Assembly: GCA_043799545.1 (NCBI GenBank)
Contig: JAZDNO010000027.1
Span: 1 to 64,000 of the forward strand
Direction of reading: 5' to 3'
DNA: 64,000 bases
Source of the DNA: Methanobacteriota archaeon
GTDB lineage: Archaea; Thermoplasmatota; Thermoplasmata; SG8-5; DAIRED01
A program made the translations under genes and the position numbers. This document shows positions 37,160-47,396 of the stretch, piece by piece. Every line of letters starts with the position of its first letter. The first letter of the stretch is position 1. The notes beneath the pieces are model-generated. The model ran no database searches. It saw only the letters and a list, made by a program, of their open reading frames with translations, and was not told where the DNA came from.

Positions 37160-37765
37160 TCAATGCGCCTCCTTGTACGATAGGAAATCCACCCTCATCA
37201 AGACTTCCATCAAATCCGCCTGAATTTTCCGGGCGTGGTCGATATTCTTCATCCTGACGTTTCTGATTTCCATGGGAAATAGGTAGGTCGTGTGGTTCTT
37301 CCCCCTTATTGCCAGGAGCGCGAAGCGAACCTCCATTCTCGACCCGTCCCCCGGGTAGAATGCGTACGCTTTCGCGGGCCTGCTCCCGCCGGCGGACGCT
37401 CGCGCCACCGAAAGCCCGGAATAGCCGACCGCCTGGTATTTGTAACCGCCATGGGCGAATTTCTCCTCGACCGCAGCTTCCAGCAGGTCGTACAGCGTCC
37501 TGTTGAACGGCAGGGCCAGTGTCCAATGGTCCTTCTGGTCGAAGTTGGTGTATGCGACGTAAATCGCGACGGGGATTCCGAAAACCATGATGACGGCGAG
37601 AGGGATTGTGTAAATCGGGAACGGCGCATCGGAAAAGGCCAAGCCGATTATCACGCCCATCGTTAAAAGCAGCGCCATGAGCCCCGCCGCCCCCAGGTTG
37701 ATTTGGTGCTGGGAGCTCTTCCACATCGCGGCCGTCTCGTGCAGCCTCGGGTCCTCGATTTCCAT
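37160..37765 (-). CDS. Hypothetical protein with 2 TM helices and a soluble C-terminal domain; first gene of the ABC operon
   Basis: Two hydrophobic helices; its stop lies 1 nt before the ABC ATPase start. Confidence 0.65.
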   Translation of the reverse strand: MEIEDPRLHETAAMWKSSQHQINLGAAGLMALLLTMGVIIGLAFSDAPFPIYTIPLAVIMVFGIPVAIYVAYTNFDQKDHWTLALPFNRTLYDLLEAAVEEKFAHGGYKYQAVGYSGLSVARASAGGSRPAKAYAFYPGDGSRMEVRFALLAIRGKNHTTYLFPMEIRNVRMKNIDHARKIQADLMEVLMRVDFLSYKEAH

Positions 37766-37874
37766 GGCCCTCGTATTGAGATTGCGCGGAGGTTATAAAA
37801 AGATAGAGATGGGGCTCCCGGGGTCTTCCACTATCCCCTTTTTATCCCCTTTGCGCATTCACATCTGGGAGAGC

Positions 37875-39425
37875 ATGGACGAAAACGAGAAGCGGAAGAT
37901 GCCCGCCATCGTCCTGGTGGGCGTAGGCGGAGGGGGCTCGCGCATCCTTTCCGAGGGGCTGGAGAAGATTGCCAGATACCCGCACGTGGACCGCTACGCC
38001 TGCCTGATGAGGGCCATCGAAGCGGGCTCCGACCCGCAATCCCATTGCAAGGAAGGCGCCGGCGGCCCCAACGTTTTCATACTCGACACCAGCTCAGACC
38101 CGACCACCGAAGGATTTTATCAAAACATACCCCTGAAGCACAAGATTTCCCTGTCGAGCAGCGTGCAGGGGATGTCGCGCGGCGCGGGGGGCAGGCCGGG
38201 ACGCGCGGCGAAGGCGGTGCTCAACCAGGATGTCTCCGAGACTTTGGCGAGGGAGCTTTACAAGCCCATAGCCGAAATCGGACCGACGATTGTCGTTTTC
38301 ATCCACACCCTCGACGGCGGGACCGGCGGCGGCCTCACGCCCGAGATACTCCAGCAGCTGGCCTTCGTTCTGCCGGCTTCGACAGTATTCTGGGTCTTCT
38401 CGGTAATGCCGACGCAGACGCCCATCTCGCTCCAGGGCCCCAGGGCCGTGGCGCTGAACGTCGGAAGGATGCTCAACGTCATCCGGCGCGTCTCGGACCG
38501 GGATTACGACCAGATACCTTTCGAGTGCCGCGAGGCGATAAGGAACATGGTGAAGACGAAGAAGGAGGACCAGTCATACGAGTTCAGGCACTCGAGGGTG
38601 GCGATGTTCCCCATGAGCAACCAGCACTTTTCGCAGTGCCTGGAGGGACAGAAGACTGTCGAGATAAGGGAGGAGATTCTCAACCCGTTCCCGGTCGAGA
38701 TGATTTCCCAAGCCCTTTATCCGTTCCTCAAGTACGTCGAATCGACCCCGGAGGAGCAGCAGTGGATGCAGAAGCAGTGGCCGATGGGCCCCATCGACAT
38801 ACCGGACATCATGGCCGGCGTGAGCCCGGACAGGCCAATGGTCCTTCCCCACCTCTGGATTGACCCGGAACCTGGGGACAAGGCCGTCGTCGACGGGGCG
38901 ATAGAGGACCTGAAAAACGGCAAGATACGGATGATGAGGGTCGAGGGGACGACCAAGGGCGGGCTGCCGGACCTGTTCTCCTTCAACGGAGCGCCGTGCG
39001 CGCTCCACGAGTTCAGGGCCAGCAGCGTCTACTGCATCCCGGTCTACCCCGAGGGGAGCAAGTACTTCGACACCTTCGGGGAGATGATTTCCGACGTCTG
39101 GTTCCCAAGGCTTTCGGGTAAGATGCACTTCATCGGTGGCCGCACGGGCGCCAAGGTCGGAGTCATCACCCATTCAGCGAACCTCAAACCGCAGCCTATT
39201 CCGCGTCCGACCGCGAGCGTCCTGGGCTTCGAGCAGGGCATGCTGGTCACGCTGATAAACGGCGGCGTGCCGGCCGACTTGCTGGCCTGGCTGAACGCCA
39301 CGAAAGACATAATGCGCGACCACCGCACGGAGGACATGTGGGAGCTGACCTTCTACGACGCCAACGACGCCCTGAACGAGGTTGCCAGATACATGGGGAT
39401 AGACGACTGGCTGAACAGGGAGTGA
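37875..39425 (+). CDS. Divergent tubulin/FtsZ-superfamily GTPase (516 aa from MDENEK)
   Basis: T1 GVGGGGSRI, T2 ILDTS, T3 RGAGGRP, T4 HTLDGGTGGG, T5 FSVMP, conserved N in PMSN, T7-like IDIPDI, all in canonical order. Confidence 0.85.
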   Translation: MDENEKRKMPAIVLVGVGGGGSRILSEGLEKIARYPHVDRYACLMRAIEAGSDPQSHCKEGAGGPNVFILDTSSDPTTEGFYQNIPLKHKISLSSSVQGMSRGAGGRPGRAAKAVLNQDVSETLARELYKPIAEIGPTIVVFIHTLDGGTGGGLTPEILQQLAFVLPASTVFWVFSVMPTQTPISLQGPRAVALNVGRMLNVIRRVSDRDYDQIPFECREAIRNMVKTKKEDQSYEFRHSRVAMFPMSNQHFSQCLEGQKTVEIREEILNPFPVEMISQALYPFLKYVESTPEEQQWMQKQWPMGPIDIPDIMAGVSPDRPMVLPHLWIDPEPGDKAVVDGAIEDLKNGKIRMMRVEGTTKGGLPDLFSFNGAPCALHEFRASSVYCIPVYPEGSKYFDTFGEMISDVWFPRLSGKMHFIGGRTGAKVGVITHSANLKPQPIPRPTASVLGFEQGMLVTLINGGVPADLLAWLNATKDIMRDHRTEDMWELTFYDANDALNEVARYMGIDDWLNRE

Positions 39426-42483: not shown

Positions 42484-42558
42484 TTGCGCGGCGCGGGCTC
42501 CCCGGGGAACCCCCATGAAAAGAATATAACCAATCCCCGGCATCGGGAGTGCGAAGAT

Positions 42559-43500
42559 ATGACAGCGGACACAATGATTTCAACGGCAGGCCTGACGAAG
42601 GACTTCGGCAGGCTCAGGGCCGTCGAAGGCGTGAACGTCGAGGTGAGGCGCGGCGAGGCCTACGGCTTCCTGGGTCCCAATGGCGCCGGCAAATCGACCA
42701 CAATCAGGATGCTCACGGGCTTCCTGCGCCCGAGCTCAGGCTCCATCGAAATCATGGGCAAGGACATGCTCCGCAATCCGCTGGCGGTGAAGGAGAAGGT
42801 CGGAATCGTGCCGGACCAGTTCGGCTTCTACCCGCTCATGAACTCATACGAGCACCTCGATTTCTACGGCAGGCTCTACGGAATGGACAGGGCGAGGCGG
42901 GAGGCGCGGACCGAAGAAGTCCTCCGCCTCGTCGGCTTGACTGACCGGGCGAAGAGCCGCGTCGGCGACTACAGCCACGGCATGAAGCAGCGGCTCGCTA
43001 TCGCGCAGGCTCTGCTCAACGAGCCCGAGATACTCTTCCTGGACGAGCCCACGACCGGTCTGGACCCGCAGGGCCAGTACGACACTCGCCAGCTTATTAA
43101 AAAATTGCATTCCGAGGGATTGACGATTTTCGTCTCCAGCCACCTGCTTCACGAGGTCGAGGACATCTGCACCCACGTGGGAATCGTCAAGTCCGGGCGC
43201 TTGGTGGCGCAGGACAGCATCGCCAACCTCCAGGGCCAGCTCTCGAAGGCCAAGGGGGTCCTCGTCTCTGTTTCGGTATGCAAGCCCGGGGAGCTATGGC
43301 CGTTCGTCAAGGACGTGCCGGGGGTGCTGGGCGTCGAACCCGCCGGCCCGAACGCCTTCGTCGTGCGGTTGGACAGGCGCGATGTTATCCCGGAGGTCGC
43401 CAGAGCCGTTGCCCTTTCGGAGCTGGGCCTGTGGAACTTCAACGAGATGCAGACCTCGCTTGAGCAGGTCTTCCTCGAGATGACGGGGGGTGCGCGCTGA
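42559..43500 (+). CDS. ABC transporter ATP-binding protein (DUF4162-type C-terminus); start placed at MTADT
   Basis: GPNGAGKST, YSHGMKQR, LDEPTTGLD, SSH, SLEQVFL. Confidence 0.93.
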   Translation: MTADTMISTAGLTKDFGRLRAVEGVNVEVRRGEAYGFLGPNGAGKSTTIRMLTGFLRPSSGSIEIMGKDMLRNPLAVKEKVGIVPDQFGFYPLMNSYEHLDFYGRLYGMDRARREARTEEVLRLVGLTDRAKSRVGDYSHGMKQRLAIAQALLNEPEILFLDEPTTGLDPQGQYDTRQLIKKLHSEGLTIFVSSHLLHEVEDICTHVGIVKSGRLVAQDSIANLQGQLSKAKGVLVSVSVCKPGELWPFVKDVPGVLGVEPAGPNAFVVRLDRRDVIPEVARAVALSELGLWNFNEMQTSLEQVFLEMTGGAR

Positions 43501-44909
43501 TGCCCCCGGCGTTCGTCGATTCCATCTGGACCGTCGCGAGGAAGGAGCTGCTGCTCCACCTCAAGACCAAGAGGCTGCTGGTCATAGGAGGGGTCTTCGC
43601 AGCGCTGATAATCATCATCTCCCTCTACGGAGGATACCTGACGGGCCAGGCGCAGGACGAGCCCACGTACGAGCAGGGCGCCGGGGCGGTCATGTCCGCC
43701 GTTTTCTCATTCTCGGCATTCTTCCCGGCGATATTGGCTGTGGCCATGACCTACGATGCGATAGTCGGGGAGAAGGTCAACCACTCGATGTATCTCCTGA
43801 TATCCAAGCCAGTTCGTCGCGAGTCGATATTCCTGGGCAAGCTGCTCGGCGCCTGGCTGGCGGTCGCGCTCGTCTACGTCGTGGTCTTCTCGCTGGGCTT
43901 CGTCCTGGTGCTCGGGATGGCGGGGGCGTCGCCGACGGCCGATGGCGCGGCCGACGTCTACGGAGCCGTGGGAATCATATTGCTAGGCACGGGGGCGTGG
44001 ATGACCCTGGTGATGCTCTATTCCTCGCTGTTCAAGACCACGGCCTCGACGTTGATAACCGCGATACTGTCGTGGCTGTTCGTGCTCAGCCTCGTGTCGC
44101 AGGCCGGGTTGATATACTACGCCGTTTCGATTTCCGGGGAGGATGTTGAGCTCAACGTGAACATTAACTATACCCCCATGCCAGGCAACCAGACGATACT
44201 GACTTTCTCCGGCTTCGCCATGATAAACGCAGTTTCGATAGACGTCTCCGTCTCCGACGCGCAGGGGAATCCTGTGCTGAACGAGCTGCCCGGTTCTGAC
44301 AACACGAGCCATAGCTTCGTCGTGGCGCCGGGAACGTATGTGTGGTCCGCATCCAGGGAAGGGGACGCTTCGGGCGCCTTTGCCAGCGGCACAGTCGCGG
44401 TCGTTCCGTTCGCCAGCATGAGCTTCGGTGTCGCGCCGCTCGACGACGACATGTACGCAAACGACGTGGCATTCTCGCTCGTTGATGGCATGGGCGAGGC
44501 GTTCCTCGGCGGAGAATATTCCATATCCGACGGCGGTTCGCCCGCCTTCGTCCAACTCGAAGTCACCGCGTTCGCCGAGAAGAACCTCACGGAGGGGGCG
44601 TTCGCCGCGGAAGTTCGCGTCAACGGCCAGACAGTCCTCCAATCGACTTTCAACTCCTACGGCGAGAAGCTCAGCGGCAACCTGGCAATCTTCGCAGCGC
44701 TGAGCGGCGAGAACGACGACGCCCCCGGTTACGTCCGCGCGATGTACGCCATCAACCCGGACAACTGCATGGGCGCGTACAACTACCTCTTCAACCCCGA
44801 CTACGTCGGCATACTGACGCTCGGGGAGTCCATAGGGTCGCTGACGGCATTCACGATTACTAGCATGGCGATAGGGCTCATCATCTTCAAAAGGAAGAGC
44901 TTGGCATAG
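43500..44909 (+). CDS. ABC-2 permease with a large extracellular beta-rich insertion
   Basis: VARKEL, IVGEK...LLISKPVRRESIFLGK; ~180-aa beta-rich insert before the last TM. Confidence 0.85.
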   Translation: MPPAFVDSIWTVARKELLLHLKTKRLLVIGGVFAALIIIISLYGGYLTGQAQDEPTYEQGAGAVMSAVFSFSAFFPAILAVAMTYDAIVGEKVNHSMYLLISKPVRRESIFLGKLLGAWLAVALVYVVVFSLGFVLVLGMAGASPTADGAADVYGAVGIILLGTGAWMTLVMLYSSLFKTTASTLITAILSWLFVLSLVSQAGLIYYAVSISGEDVELNVNINYTPMPGNQTILTFSGFAMINAVSIDVSVSDAQGNPVLNELPGSDNTSHSFVVAPGTYVWSASREGDASGAFASGTVAVVPFASMSFGVAPLDDDMYANDVAFSLVDGMGEAFLGGEYSISDGGSPAFVQLEVTAFAEKNLTEGAFAAEVRVNGQTVLQSTFNSYGEKLSGNLAIFAALSGENDDAPGYVRAMYAINPDNCMGAYNYLFNPDYVGILTLGESIGSLTAFTITSMAIGLIIFKRKSLA

Positions 44910-44924
44910 AGCAGCCCCGGCGGT

Positions 44925-46274
44925 TTACTTCCACGCTCCCAGCGCATTCCTCATGTGGCTGATTGCCGCCTCCTCGTACGGTCTGGCTGCGCGGAGCAGG
45001 GCAGCGCCCTTCTTGCACTTGTCCTGCGGGAGCGCGCCGTCGAAAGCGAATGGGAAACATTTCTCAAGCTTACCCATCAGCTCCGCCGCCTCTCCGTACT
45101 CCTTTGCCGCGTTCGCCAGGTGCTTCGATTGCGGCTTGGCCGAATATTTCATGGCAAGCCGCCTCAGAAACTCGGCTGCGTTCTTCCGACCCTCGTGGTA
45201 GCACGCCGTGACGTAACTGTGGCCGTGGTACGCCGCCTCGCCGGCAATCCCTTTTTCCAGGACGTTCGCCCATTCGTCATAGGCTACCGGCCCAGCTTCG
45301 TACCCCGCCCATTTCCGGGCTCCCCCGGCGATCTCGACCGCCCTCTCGACAGCCTTCCTATCAGCTTTGGCGTCGATGCCTCTCGTCTCGCTCCCGAACA
45401 TGAATGCCTGGAGGCAACCGGGAGCCACCAACGCATCGTACCTTACCGGGTCGTCCGGCATGCCTGAGTTGGCGCGGAAGGTGCTCACCAAATATTCGTC
45501 CCCCCGATAGCCTTTCACGATGCCGTACTCGGGAATAGGTATCCCCCAAAGCACGACCGGCATGTCCCGGTCGATCTCCTTTTTCACAACCTCGAAGAGC
45601 TTCCTGGCCCGCGTTTGGTCTTCGGCGCTCAGCGGTCCGGGAGCCTGCGGGAAACATTTTGTCTCCGTGTAGCTTGTGACCTTGCGACCCAGCACTTCCG
45701 TCGCCTTCTCGATGTCGTCCCAGTATCCAAGGCACGTAGGCCCGGACGGACACGTCGCCCCCTTCGAGACGTTCAGTACGAACGCGTAGCCGGTGTATCC
45801 CGCAACATCCACAACGTCGCGGTCAATGCCAATAGATTTAAGCGCCCCCGATATCGCGCCGGTGTACGACAGCCAACAGCATTGATAGACCGGCTCATTG
45901 CTCACAAGCCGCTCCACGCCAATTATTCCCTTCTCGCGCCCCTTGGAATACATGCTCGCAAGATTTTTCTGCTCAGCCGCGACGCGCGCCCTCGAGCCGG
46001 CATAGAAACCGCCGATGGCCTCCAGGAGCTGGGCGCCGTCCTCGGTGAGCGAGTAGCTGCCGCGCCCCCTGCGTTCGACGAGGCCCATGCCGACCATCTG
46101 GCTCAAGTGGTTCGCCAGCGCAGTCTTGCTAAGGCCGACCCTGTCCTGCAAATCGCCGAATTCTTTCGCGCCGTCCGCCAGCATCGCCATCGCCTTCAGA
46201 CGCGCCGGGTGGGCGCTCGCCCTGACCAGCTTCGACGCCTGCTCCGCGTCCGACGCTTCGAGATTCTTTGACAT
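44925..46274 (-). CDS. ArsR-type winged-HTH fused to a BtrH/C39 papain-like domain
   Basis: AHPARL...LSKTALANHL..GLV..YSLT wHTH; then QCC, GYTGYAF, CPSGP, VLWG..EYGIVKGY. Confidence 0.65.
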   Translation of the reverse strand: MSKNLEASDAEQASKLVRASAHPARLKAMAMLADGAKEFGDLQDRVGLSKTALANHLSQMVGMGLVERRGRGSYSLTEDGAQLLEAIGGFYAGSRARVAAEQKNLASMYSKGREKGIIGVERLVSNEPVYQCCWLSYTGAISGALKSIGIDRDVVDVAGYTGYAFVLNVSKGATCPSGPTCLGYWDDIEKATEVLGRKVTSYTETKCFPQAPGPLSAEDQTRARKLFEVVKKEIDRDMPVVLWGIPIPEYGIVKGYRGDEYLVSTFRANSGMPDDPVRYDALVAPGCLQAFMFGSETRGIDAKADRKAVERAVEIAGGARKWAGYEAGPVAYDEWANVLEKGIAGEAAYHGHSYVTACYHEGRKNAAEFLRRLAMKYSAKPQSKHLANAAKEYGEAAELMGKLEKCFPFAFDGALPQDKCKKGAALLRAARPYEEAAISHMRNALGAWK

Positions 46275-46348
46275 TTCCCAGGCCTCCGGAAGAGGAAAGG
46301 GAGGGGGGGTTGATAAATATTTTGGTGAATGAAAGTACTAAAAATGGT

Positions 46349-46360
46349 GAACAATTGTTC
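46349..46360. promoter_or_regulatory. Perfect 12-bp palindrome GAACAATTGTTC in a divergent promoter region (candidate operator)
   Basis: Exact palindrome between the divergent HTH gene and the DrrA-like ABC operon; a tggtgaa direct repeat lies nearby. Confidence 0.5.
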
Positions 46361-46433
46361 TGCCGTCAGCATTCAGTTTGTCCTGCCATGGTTTTACAAG
46401 CCTTCTTATCCACCCTACGCGATTCCCACCGCG

Positions 46434-47396
46434 ATGCCCGCCATCGTCGTCTCCGACCTGAAGAAGCGCTACGGCAAGAGCGTGCTGGCAGTCGACGGCG
46501 TATCGTTCTCCATCGATGAGGGGGAGGTCTTCGGGCTCCTGGGGCCGAACGGCGCCGGCAAGACGACGATTGTCAAGGTGCTCACCACGCTTCTGAGCAT
46601 CACCGAAGGCCGCGTCTCGATACTGGGCCACGAGCGCCCGAAGCGCGACTATGAGATTCGCAACTGCATAGGCTACGTGCCCCAGGACGTCTCTTCGGAT
46701 TCCGCGCTCACTGGCTACGAGAACCTCCTCATCTCCGCGAAGCTCTACGGCAGGTTCGGGGCAAAGGCCAAGGAGGTCTCCGAAGCCGTGCTGAAGCAGC
46801 TTGGCCTCTGGGACGCGAAGGACCGCACAGTCAAGACCTACTCGGGGGGGATGATTCGGAAACTGGAGATAGGCCAGGCCATGGTCCACGACCCGAAGGT
46901 CCTCTTCCTCGACGAGCCCACTATCGGCCTCGACCCCGTCGCGCGGAAGCAGGTCTGGGCGTCGATAAAGGACCTGCGGGAGAAGACTGGCGCGACCATC
47001 ATCGTCACGACGCATTACATGGAGGAGGCGGACCATCTCTGCGACCGCATCGCCATCATGAGCATCGGGAAGATTGCCACCGTCGGAACGCCTGCCGCGC
47101 TGAAGGCGTCCGTCGGGATGGGCGCCATCGTCCTGGAAGTCAAGGGAACGCCCCCGGAAATCCCGGGAGCTAGAATGGAAAACGGCTCAGTCATCATCCC
47201 CGCGGCGGAGCCGTCGAAGGAACTTCCGAAGATGGTCCAGCTGATGACCGCCGCGGGCTGCGAGGTCCTCTCCGCCAAGGCGCGCGAGACCACGCTCGAG
47301 GACGCCTTCGTCAAGTACGCCGGCACGAAGATTGAGGAGATGGACCAGTGGTCCGCTGTGCGCAAGACACGCAGGACGGCGGGGAGGCTGGCATGA
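46434..47396 (+). CDS. DrrA-like multidrug ABC exporter ATP-binding protein; start placed at MPAIVV
   Basis: GPNGAGKTT, YSGGMIRK, LDEPTIGLDP, TTHYMEEAD-LCDRIAI. Confidence 0.92.
   Translation: MPAIVVSDLKKRYGKSVLAVDGVSFSIDEGEVFGLLGPNGAGKTTIVKVLTTLLSITEGRVSILGHERPKRDYEIRNCIGYVPQDVSSDSALTGYENLLISAKLYGRFGAKAKEVSEAVLKQLGLWDAKDRTVKTYSGGMIRKLEIGQAMVHDPKVLFLDEPTIGLDPVARKQVWASIKDLREKTGATIIVTTHYMEEADHLCDRIAIMSIGKIATVGTPAALKASVGMGAIVLEVKGTPPEIPGARMENGSVIIPAAEPSKELPKMVQLMTAAGCEVLSAKARETTLEDAFVKYAGTKIEEMDQWSAVRKTRRTAGRLA

Follow-up and report, generated by a model that had tools for sequence, protein, structure and literature searches.

A divergent tubulin/FtsZ-superfamily protein that probably represents a separate, deep-branching family of Thermoplasmatota

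The gene, its conserved loops and its predicted fold

We analyzed a 64,000-nucleotide stretch of archaeal DNA (the window; contig JAZDNO010000027.1, assembly GCA_043799545.1), and in particular a gene at 37875-39425 on its forward strand. An open frame from 37875 to 39422, closed by a TGA stop codon at 39423-39425, encodes a protein of 516 amino acids (aa), and both the translation and the start sites of homologues bear out this gene model, which an initial annotation had proposed. That annotation had also inferred an uncharacterised archaeal family unlike canonical FtsZ or CetZ, a view now supported by the predicted fold, by the failure of curated models to recognize the protein, and by the clade that it forms with its homologues (together, the family). 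Based on its predicted structure, the protein is a real member of the tubulin/FtsZ superfamily, and it looks soluble and of ordinary size.

A longer alternative, a 582-aa open reading frame (ORF) running from 37677 to 39425 on the same strand, is unlikely to be the real gene, because the N termini of 32 of the 32 aligned homologues fall on or close to the residues encoded after the ATG at 37875, and because the extension would overlap a divergent upstream ORF at 37160-37765. The ATG at 37875 is further favoured by the 109-bp gap between this ORF and the ATG, which holds two TATA-like boxes and a GGGAGAG directly before the ATG. From a reading of the sequence alone, we propose a putative promoter and leader in this gap. 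The GC content of the gene equals that of the surrounding DNA.

Conservation was determined from an alignment of 33 sequences that are 48-90% identical to the window protein, and columns were mapped by aligning the family to FtsZ, CetZ, Asgard tubulins, and TubZ with MAFFT L-INS-i. The features of the locus are as follows.

37790..37874, forward strand: putative promoter and leader, with TATA-like TTATAAAAAG (~37794) and TTTTTATCC (~37839) and a Shine-Dalgarno-like GGGAGAG before the ATG
37875..39425, forward strand: coding sequence of the 516-aa divergent tubulin/FtsZ-superfamily protein, based on translation, homologue alignment, and fold
37914..37946, forward strand: end of S1 and T1 loop, residues 14-24, LVGVGGGGSRI; invariant G16, G18-G21, S22, R23, and I24
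38085..38102, forward strand: T2 loop, residues 71-76, DTSSDP; invariant D71, T72, S73, D75, and P76
38169..38207, forward strand: T3 loop, residues 99-111, GMSRGAGGRPGRA; invariant G99, S101, G103-G106, and P108-A111
38304..38333, forward strand: T4 signature, residues 144-153, HTLDGGTGGG; invariant H144 and D147-G153
38397..38444, forward strand: S5 and T5 loop, residues 175-190, FSVMPTQTPISLQGPR; invariant F175, V177, P179, G188, P189, and R190
38607..38630, forward strand: end of S6 and T6, residues 245-252, FPMSNQHF; invariant S248, N249, H251, and F252
38778..38819, forward strand: end of H7, T7, and start of H8, residues 302-315, WPMGPIDIPDIMAG; invariant W302, P303, G305, P306, D308, and D311-G315
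39171..39197, forward strand: family-specific motif H-[SA]-A-N-L-K-P-Q-P, residues 433-441; invariant H433 and A435-P441
39327..39422, forward strand: C-terminal helices and conserved aromatic end, residues 485-516, consensus YIGWxDWPxKKY; model helices at 485-489 and 493-507

The T1, T3, T4, T5, and T7-like strings singled out in the initial annotation all occur in the protein, at the residues given here, and contain residues that are invariant in the alignment. They are not chance strings, since these residues do not vary among 33 sequences of such limited identity. T1 (GVGGGGSRI, residues 16-24) lies in the same columns as FtsZ GVGGGGGNA, tubulin VGQAG, and the T1 of CetZ, and the DTS of T2 shares columns with FtsZ NTD and tubulin DLE. 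The GAGGRP of T3 occupies residues 103-108, and GAGGRPG aligns to FtsZ GLGAGANP. In T4, HTLDGGTGGG aligns to tubulin HAVGGGSGGG, CetZ GGGTGSG, and FtsZ GGGTGTG; the string as originally quoted, IHTLDGGTGGG, covers residues 143-153, and its Asp replaces the first Gly of the GGGTGxG-type signature. The FSVMP of T5 corresponds to residues 175-179, with the S5-T5 segment matching the tubulin region locally, and Asn249 aligns to the Asn that FtsZ, CetZ, and tubulin conserve in T6.

The T7-like string PIDIPDI (residues 306-312) contains D308 and D311 in a D-x-x-D arrangement, and these align to both Asp residues of E. coli FtsZ DFAD (residues 209 and 212 of that sequence). Across families, DIPD falls in the columns of FtsZ DFAD, tubulin DMKE, CetZ DASE, and TubZ DPSD. 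In the structural model, the segment lies between helices at 292-301 and 309-312, which is the H7-T7-H8 position.

The initial annotation described these loops as a mosaic of FtsZ-like T1 and tubulin-like T4 and T5, and this description holds in part. The tubulin likeness of the S4-T4-H4-S5-T5 stretch is real but not statistically significant: when the family profile was compared with PDB sequences, the best matches were tubulins and phage c-st TubZ (second), at E 0.04-0.9, over this stretch. The GGGG of T1 is present but is probably derived rather than an ancestral FtsZ feature, because the T1 loops of three distant relatives (introduced below) read GQGG, GQAG, and GEGG, as in tubulin and CetZ.

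We built an AlphaFold2 model of the 516-aa protein on the 33-sequence alignment (mean predicted local distance difference test score [pLDDT] 79.8, predicted template modelling score [pTM] 0.88). The protein models as a tubulin/FtsZ fold and is predicted to have the full two-domain arrangement: a Rossmann-type GTP-binding domain, the core helix H7, and an activation domain with T7. The best 50 Foldseek matches in the PDB were all tubulins (gamma, beta, BtubA, and OdinTubulin), with E ~1e-11 to 1e-10, target-normalised TM scores of 0.57-0.65, and alignments of ~540 columns.

VIA-align, which is independent of Foldseek, was run against 48,161 representative chains and ranked the superfamily differently. 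CetZ scored highest (3zid, Z 27.1, 313 residues, root-mean-square deviation 3.0; CetZ2, Z 25.3, 324 residues), and was followed by Asgard AtubA/B2 (Z 24.4, 379 residues, model residues 9-509), BtubA (Z 24.4, 370 residues), beta-tubulin (Z 24.1, 377 residues), phage c-st TubZ (Z 23.7, 293 residues), P. aeruginosa FtsZ (Z 23.6, 305 residues), and PhuZ (Z ~19, 280-290 residues). In total, 16 superfamily structures scored Z 19-27 and a seventeenth, a partial FtsZ match, Z 14.4, while the next unrelated (Rossmann) fold scored Z 8.1. The structural alignments ended at residue 509 for tubulins, at 484 for CetZ, TubZ, and PhuZ, and at 464 for FtsZ.

Family-specific insertions are located at residues ~36-66, 205-240, 256-290, and 417-455. 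The large C-terminal domain noted in the initial annotation is sizeable, but it is an ordinary activation domain with insertions and terminal helices, aligned to tubulin, and contains no foreign domain. The absence of an FtsZ-type disordered tail was read correctly, as the model is helical to residue 507 and pLDDT is >80 at the end. Within the C-terminal domain, the H-[SA]-A-N-L-K-P-Q-P motif sits in a loop modelled with pLDDT <55 and has no counterpart in the other tubulin-superfamily sequences aligned; this loop is a candidate partner-binding or lateral-contact site.

Compared with FtsZ, the protein is thus alike in fold, in the GGGG of T1, the G-A-G of T3, and the D-x-x-D of T7, and unlike in that the family has no match to TIGR00065 or FtsZ_C, no disordered linker, no C-terminal anchor peptide, and no division-gene context.

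Separation from described families and phylogenetic position

No curated model for FtsZ, CetZ, tubulin, or FtsZl1 accepts the window protein. It scored 24.6 bits on PF00091 (E 3.6e-5), under the 33-bit gathering cut-off, and 17.1 bits on PF13809 (Tubulin_2) against a 27-bit cut-off. It had no match at E up to 10 to PF12327 (FtsZ_C), PF03953 (Tubulin_C), or PF21011 (CetZ_C), nor to NCBIfam models, TIGR00065 included. A positive control, the CetZ encoded on H. volcanii pHV4, scored 222.8 bits on CetZ_C. Many homologues carry a precomputed PF00091 match.

We then used HMMER to score 1.84 billion representative proteins with a family profile, keeping matches with E up to 1e-3. Besides the family's own cluster and fragments, the 15 matches included just three full-length proteins, which are rare and distant (P0091, P0092, and P0094; 491-515 aa, E 7e-14 to 7.5e-7). 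Canonical FtsZ, CetZ, and tubulin were absent from these matches, as were FtsZl1 and FtsZl2 proteins. An alignment of the three distant relatives, used as the query, recovered just one of the three.

Profile-profile comparison by hhalign gave the family a score of 210 over 426 columns with the three distant relatives, 38 over 152 columns with CetZ, 34 over 41 with tubulin, 32 over 107 with FtsZ, and 19 over 52 with TubZ. On the same scale, FtsZ-CetZ scored 145, FtsZ-tubulin 68, and FtsZ-TubZ 32. The distance of the family from the main families is therefore similar to that of TubZ; scores to FtsZ and tubulin were 32-36 for TubZ, and the family's were 32-38.

Highly diverged superfamily members that co-exist with FtsZ have been described before, as FtsZl1 and FtsZl2 (PMC2875224), and FtsZl2 further resembles the window protein in being a solitary gene product with a large mixed alpha/beta C-terminal part and T1-T7 retained (PMC2875224). 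The window protein differs from FtsZl1 in scoring below the PF13809 cut-off, in its C-terminal domain, which is modelled as globular alpha/beta and lacks a coiled coil, and in having neither vWA nor OmpA neighbours. FtsZl2 is proteobacterial, with one example of 735 aa, and by this description the family would probably be distinct from it. No description of such a Thermoplasmatota family was found in full-text searches and the main superfamily surveys (PMC9871819, PMC2875224, PMC9856176, and PMC13394414), and the family seems to have been undescribed so far.

We inferred three maximum-likelihood trees (LG+C20+F+G4, posterior mean site frequency model [PMSF]) from a whole-protein alignment, a GTPase-domain alignment, and an E-INS-i alignment with the longest branches removed. 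CetZ was represented by six haloarchaeal sequences, TubZ by one sequence, and tubulins by those of Asgard archaea; artubulin, BtubAB, OdinTubulin, and FtsZl1/2 were left out. The family formed a clade with support of 100/99 or better in all three trees, and also a clade together with its three distant relatives (96/96, 98/93, and 100/99). It did not nest inside the sampled FtsZ, CetZ, Asgard tubulin, or TubZ. The FtsZ clade (100/99, 100/97, and 99/99) excluded it in all three trees, as did the Asgard tubulin clade (100/100), and neither exclusion had support below 99/97 in any of them. The haloarchaeal CetZ clade excluded it with 100/97 and 93/95, but with 58/85 in the GTPase-domain tree.

These topologies bear on the possibility that the protein is a highly derived CetZ offshoot, that is, a cell-shape homologue that changed fast once and was then frozen by selection. 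CetZ (PDB 3zid and 4b45) is the best structural and profile-profile match, is archaeal, mixes tubulin-like and FtsZ-like loops, and ends in a folded terminal helix instead of a long disordered tail. In addition, the nearest named ESM Atlas cluster carries CetZ_C, an approximately unbiased (AU) test left a clade of the family with CetZ standing (p 0.118), and the niche would be free, as CetZ_C was absent from the 251 Thermoplasmatota genomes searched, carriers of the family included. On the other hand, the leads of CetZ over tubulin and FtsZ in Z and hhalign score are small, and the window protein gives no CetZ_C match under conditions in which the control CetZ is recognized. CetZ proteins have ~360-395 aa, compared with 516 aa and four insertions here, and no tree unites the family with CetZ, with haloarchaeal CetZ sampled alone. 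Thus, we consider descent from CetZ unlikely.

A second placement would make the family a sister lineage of true tubulins (eukaryotic, Asgard, and BtubAB), with a common ancestor that postdates their separation from FtsZ and CetZ. The whole-protein and GTPase-domain trees contain a corresponding split, which unites the family, its distant relatives, and the Asgard tubulins against FtsZ, CetZ, and TubZ (97/90 and 95/89). The Foldseek ranking, the PDB profile matches in the S4-T5 region, and the structural alignments, which extend through residue 509 for tubulins alone and are the longest obtained (377-384 residues), are consistent with it, as are the comparable size and the loop signatures common to both groups (T4 H-x-x-x-G-G-T/S-G-G/S-G; T5 S-V/I-x-P, or S-V-x-P in the family). 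However, with the other alignment and the longest branches removed, the tubulin-side split was gone and an FtsZ-tubulin group appeared at 75/29. AU tests rejected neither the family with CetZ nor the family with FtsZ (p 0.144), the PDB profile matches had E of at least 0.04, and Tubulin_C was not matched. The family also differs from tubulins in its identity to them (10-13%), its T1 (GGGG versus tubulin GQxG), a T7 that ends in Asp as in FtsZ, and the lack of an adjacent gene for a heterodimer partner. Attraction toward tubulins is a likely artefact because both branches are long, and a sister relationship to true tubulins appears doubtful.

Because the tubulin-side split was not reproduced and the AU alternatives were not rejected, we claim no sister group. 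Based on these sequence comparisons, the family appears to be a distinct deep lineage, itself a well-supported clade, whose position relative to tubulin, CetZ, and FtsZ is left unplaced by the trees.

Distribution, constraint and genomic context

A word-index search returned 82 homologue clusters at 48-90% identity, nearly all ~500-545 aa long (about 513 aa typical). The homologues are named just "hypothetical protein", and their labels, where given, are Thermoplasmata or Thermoplasmatota. Among GTDB species genomes we found 34 loci, all in metagenome-assembled genomes and labelled Methanomassiliicoccales, Thermoplasmatales, Thermoplasmata, or more broadly Methanobacteriota or uncultured archaeon. 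The surveyed family is thus restricted to uncultured Thermoplasmatota, a phylum in which 23 of 401 sampled genomes carry it. Carriers cluster in few taxonomic families: one has 15 among its 24 sampled genomes and another, which belongs to the same order as the window's genome, has 7 among 13, with none in most other families. This patchy distribution implies a function that is dispensable for most of the phylum.

Where it occurs, the protein is almost as constrained as FtsZ and evolves slightly faster. The window protein is 69, 67, 59, 56, and 58% identical to its orthologues in five genomes, in which the best FtsZ is 74, 71, 68, 67, and 67% identical. Identity drops as taxonomic distance grows, the pattern that mainly vertical inheritance with losses would produce.

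Gene neighbourhoods vary by lineage. On contigs that reach 323 kb, the genes nearby encode, among others, ribosomal proteins, S8 peptidases, methyltransferases, and translation factors. We clustered all ORFs within ~6-8 kb of the gene at 38 loci and found no conserved functional partner gene, just shadow ORFs, generic ABC (ATP-binding cassette) ATPases, and synteny within sub-clades (a GHMP kinase downstream at 7 loci, a P-type ATPase upstream at 5, and a divergently transcribed cyclophilin at 8). There was accordingly no neighbour shared across the family.

The source genome also encodes three canonical FtsZ proteins (TIGR00065, 400-425 bits; C6:28010-29720 and C1:40814-41296), two of them from tandem genes on the same strand. 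Archaea with FtsZ mostly have two FtsZ genes. Three more short, divergent proteins of this genome match just the FtsZ GTPase domain (C31:13207-13668, 275 aa; C2:92935-93660, 424 aa; C10:100797-101054, 311 aa), and one of these ORFs holds two partial PF00091 stretches. PF13809 was found in 0 of 24 genomes of the best-populated carrier family.

A tubulin-like protein can also belong to a mobile element, as do the segregation tubulins TubZ and PhuZ of plasmids and phages, and we weighed whether the family might be of this type, a domesticated or resident segregation protein rather than part of the host cytoskeleton. The distant relative P0092 (503 aa; metagenome contigs L050:2171-13512 and L051) is encoded among large ORFs that follow one another on one strand (1277, 430, 549, 194, and ~893 aa) and have no Pfam matches, in DNA of 38-42% GC, and one copy adjoins an rve integrase; these contigs may derive from a virus or other mobile element that encodes a tubulin-like protein. 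P0092 has a weak PHROG match to PhuZ, the T7 of the distant relatives (DPSD and DPND) resembles that of TubZ, and the family shares with TubZ/PhuZ a comparable divergence, structural scores of Z 19-24, and the c-st TubZ match in the PDB profile search. The family itself is nonetheless found in a chromosomal housekeeping context of ribosomal, metabolic, and transporter genes, is single copy, lacks a TubR-like or centromere partner, and loses identity with taxonomic distance much like FtsZ. These points make a segregation protein of this kind very improbable.

Searches for a mobile or defence origin led us to reject it, since plasmids, phages, PHROGs, PADLOC, and viral folds gave nothing nearer than cellular tubulins. 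The phage and plasmid collections contained no tblastn match to the family, the family protein had no match in PHROGs or PADLOC, and structural matches in a viral fold library were weaker than those to cellular tubulins. A tblastn search of the phages with pBtoxis TubZ gave no match.

Within the window, the neighbours of the 516-aa gene encode ABC transporters (ABC-2), a YgiQ-type radical SAM (S-adenosylmethionine) enzyme, a major facilitator superfamily (MFS) transporter, and ArsR-type regulators. SepF, TubR, and ESCRT genes are not among them, and the earlier statement that no sepF-like division, TubR/replicon, or ESCRT genes are adjacent agrees with this neighbour annotation. The divergent ORF at 37160-37765 (reverse strand, 201 aa) has no Pfam match. 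It is probably part of a transporter operon, because it lies directly upstream of, and on the same strand as, genes for an ABC ATPase and two ABC-2 permeases. Downstream, at 42484-47396, several more ABC ATPase/ABC-2 permease pairs are clustered with a 449-aa ArsR/HTH_5 regulator, and the window as a whole is unusually rich in ABC-2 type exporters.

Proposed mechanism and implications

Taken together, we think it probable that the protein represents a separate, deep-branching tubulin/FtsZ family of some Thermoplasmatota that forms GTP-driven head-to-tail filaments, probably in a host role other than the division ring. In the mechanism that we propose, the 516-aa protein would bind GTP and assemble head to tail into protofilaments, in which the T7 acidic residues D308 and D311 of one subunit would complete the GTPase site of the next. 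GTP hydrolysis across subunits would then make the filaments dynamic.

Judging from the conserved loops and the predicted monomer, GTP-dependent polymerisation is the most likely mechanism. It is favoured because nucleotide loops T1-T6 and the H7-T7-H8 segment are invariant, the signature of an active site completed across a filament interface, and because every characterised member of the superfamily forms filaments (Makarova and Koonin, PMC2875224). A host cytoskeletal role outside the core division ring, for example in shape or internal organisation, is suggested because the gene is solitary and chromosomal, stands alongside three canonical FtsZ genes, and occurs in a phylum sample in which no CetZ was found.

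Several observations weigh against this interpretation. The case for GTP binding and polymerisation consists of conserved loops and a predicted monomer, and the distribution of the family is patchy. At the position of the conserved T7 Asn (N207 of E. coli FtsZ) the family has Pro/Ile, and the T4 Asp, where other families have Gly, could alter nucleotide handling. The low-confidence insertions, including the invariant HSANLKPQP loop, might block standard longitudinal or lateral contacts.

The same T7 and T4 substitutions, together with large insertions and an invariant loop that suggest new interaction surfaces, would fit a non-polymerising GTPase or nucleotide-binding regulator in which the fold was kept and filament formation lost. 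Against this, neither the two acidic residues of T7 nor any other part of the H7-T7-H8 segment varies, a pattern difficult to account for unless an active site forms between subunits, and a non-polymerising protein would stand apart from all characterised superfamily members (PMC2875224). We therefore regard the loss of filament formation as quite unlikely and retain a polymerising protein as the preferred reading.

The tubulin/FtsZ superfamily divides deeply into just a few branches (FtsZ, CetZ, tubulins, TubZ/PhuZ, and FtsZl1/2), and each branch studied builds a different filament system. A placement on the tubulin side, if true, would bear on the origin of tubulin. Among prokaryotes outside the Asgard archaea, the family and its three distant relatives would then form the nearest sister lineage to the tubulin clade, which we think improbable. 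In that case the T4 His, the T5 S-V-x-P, an extended H1-S2 loop, and the C-terminal surface helices would predate Asgard and eukaryotic tubulins, and the protein would be a surviving intermediate between filaments of the CetZ/FtsZ type and those of the tubulin type.

As a probable new branch, the family stands out in combining near-FtsZ purifying selection and retention of all catalytic loops with a TubZ-like distance from other families. It offers a test case for how far filament interfaces of the tubulin/FtsZ fold tolerate insertions. More broadly, it suggests that the Thermoplasmatota, a large and mostly uncultured archaeal phylum with no CetZ found in its sampled genomes, have a cytoskeletal system still to be explored.

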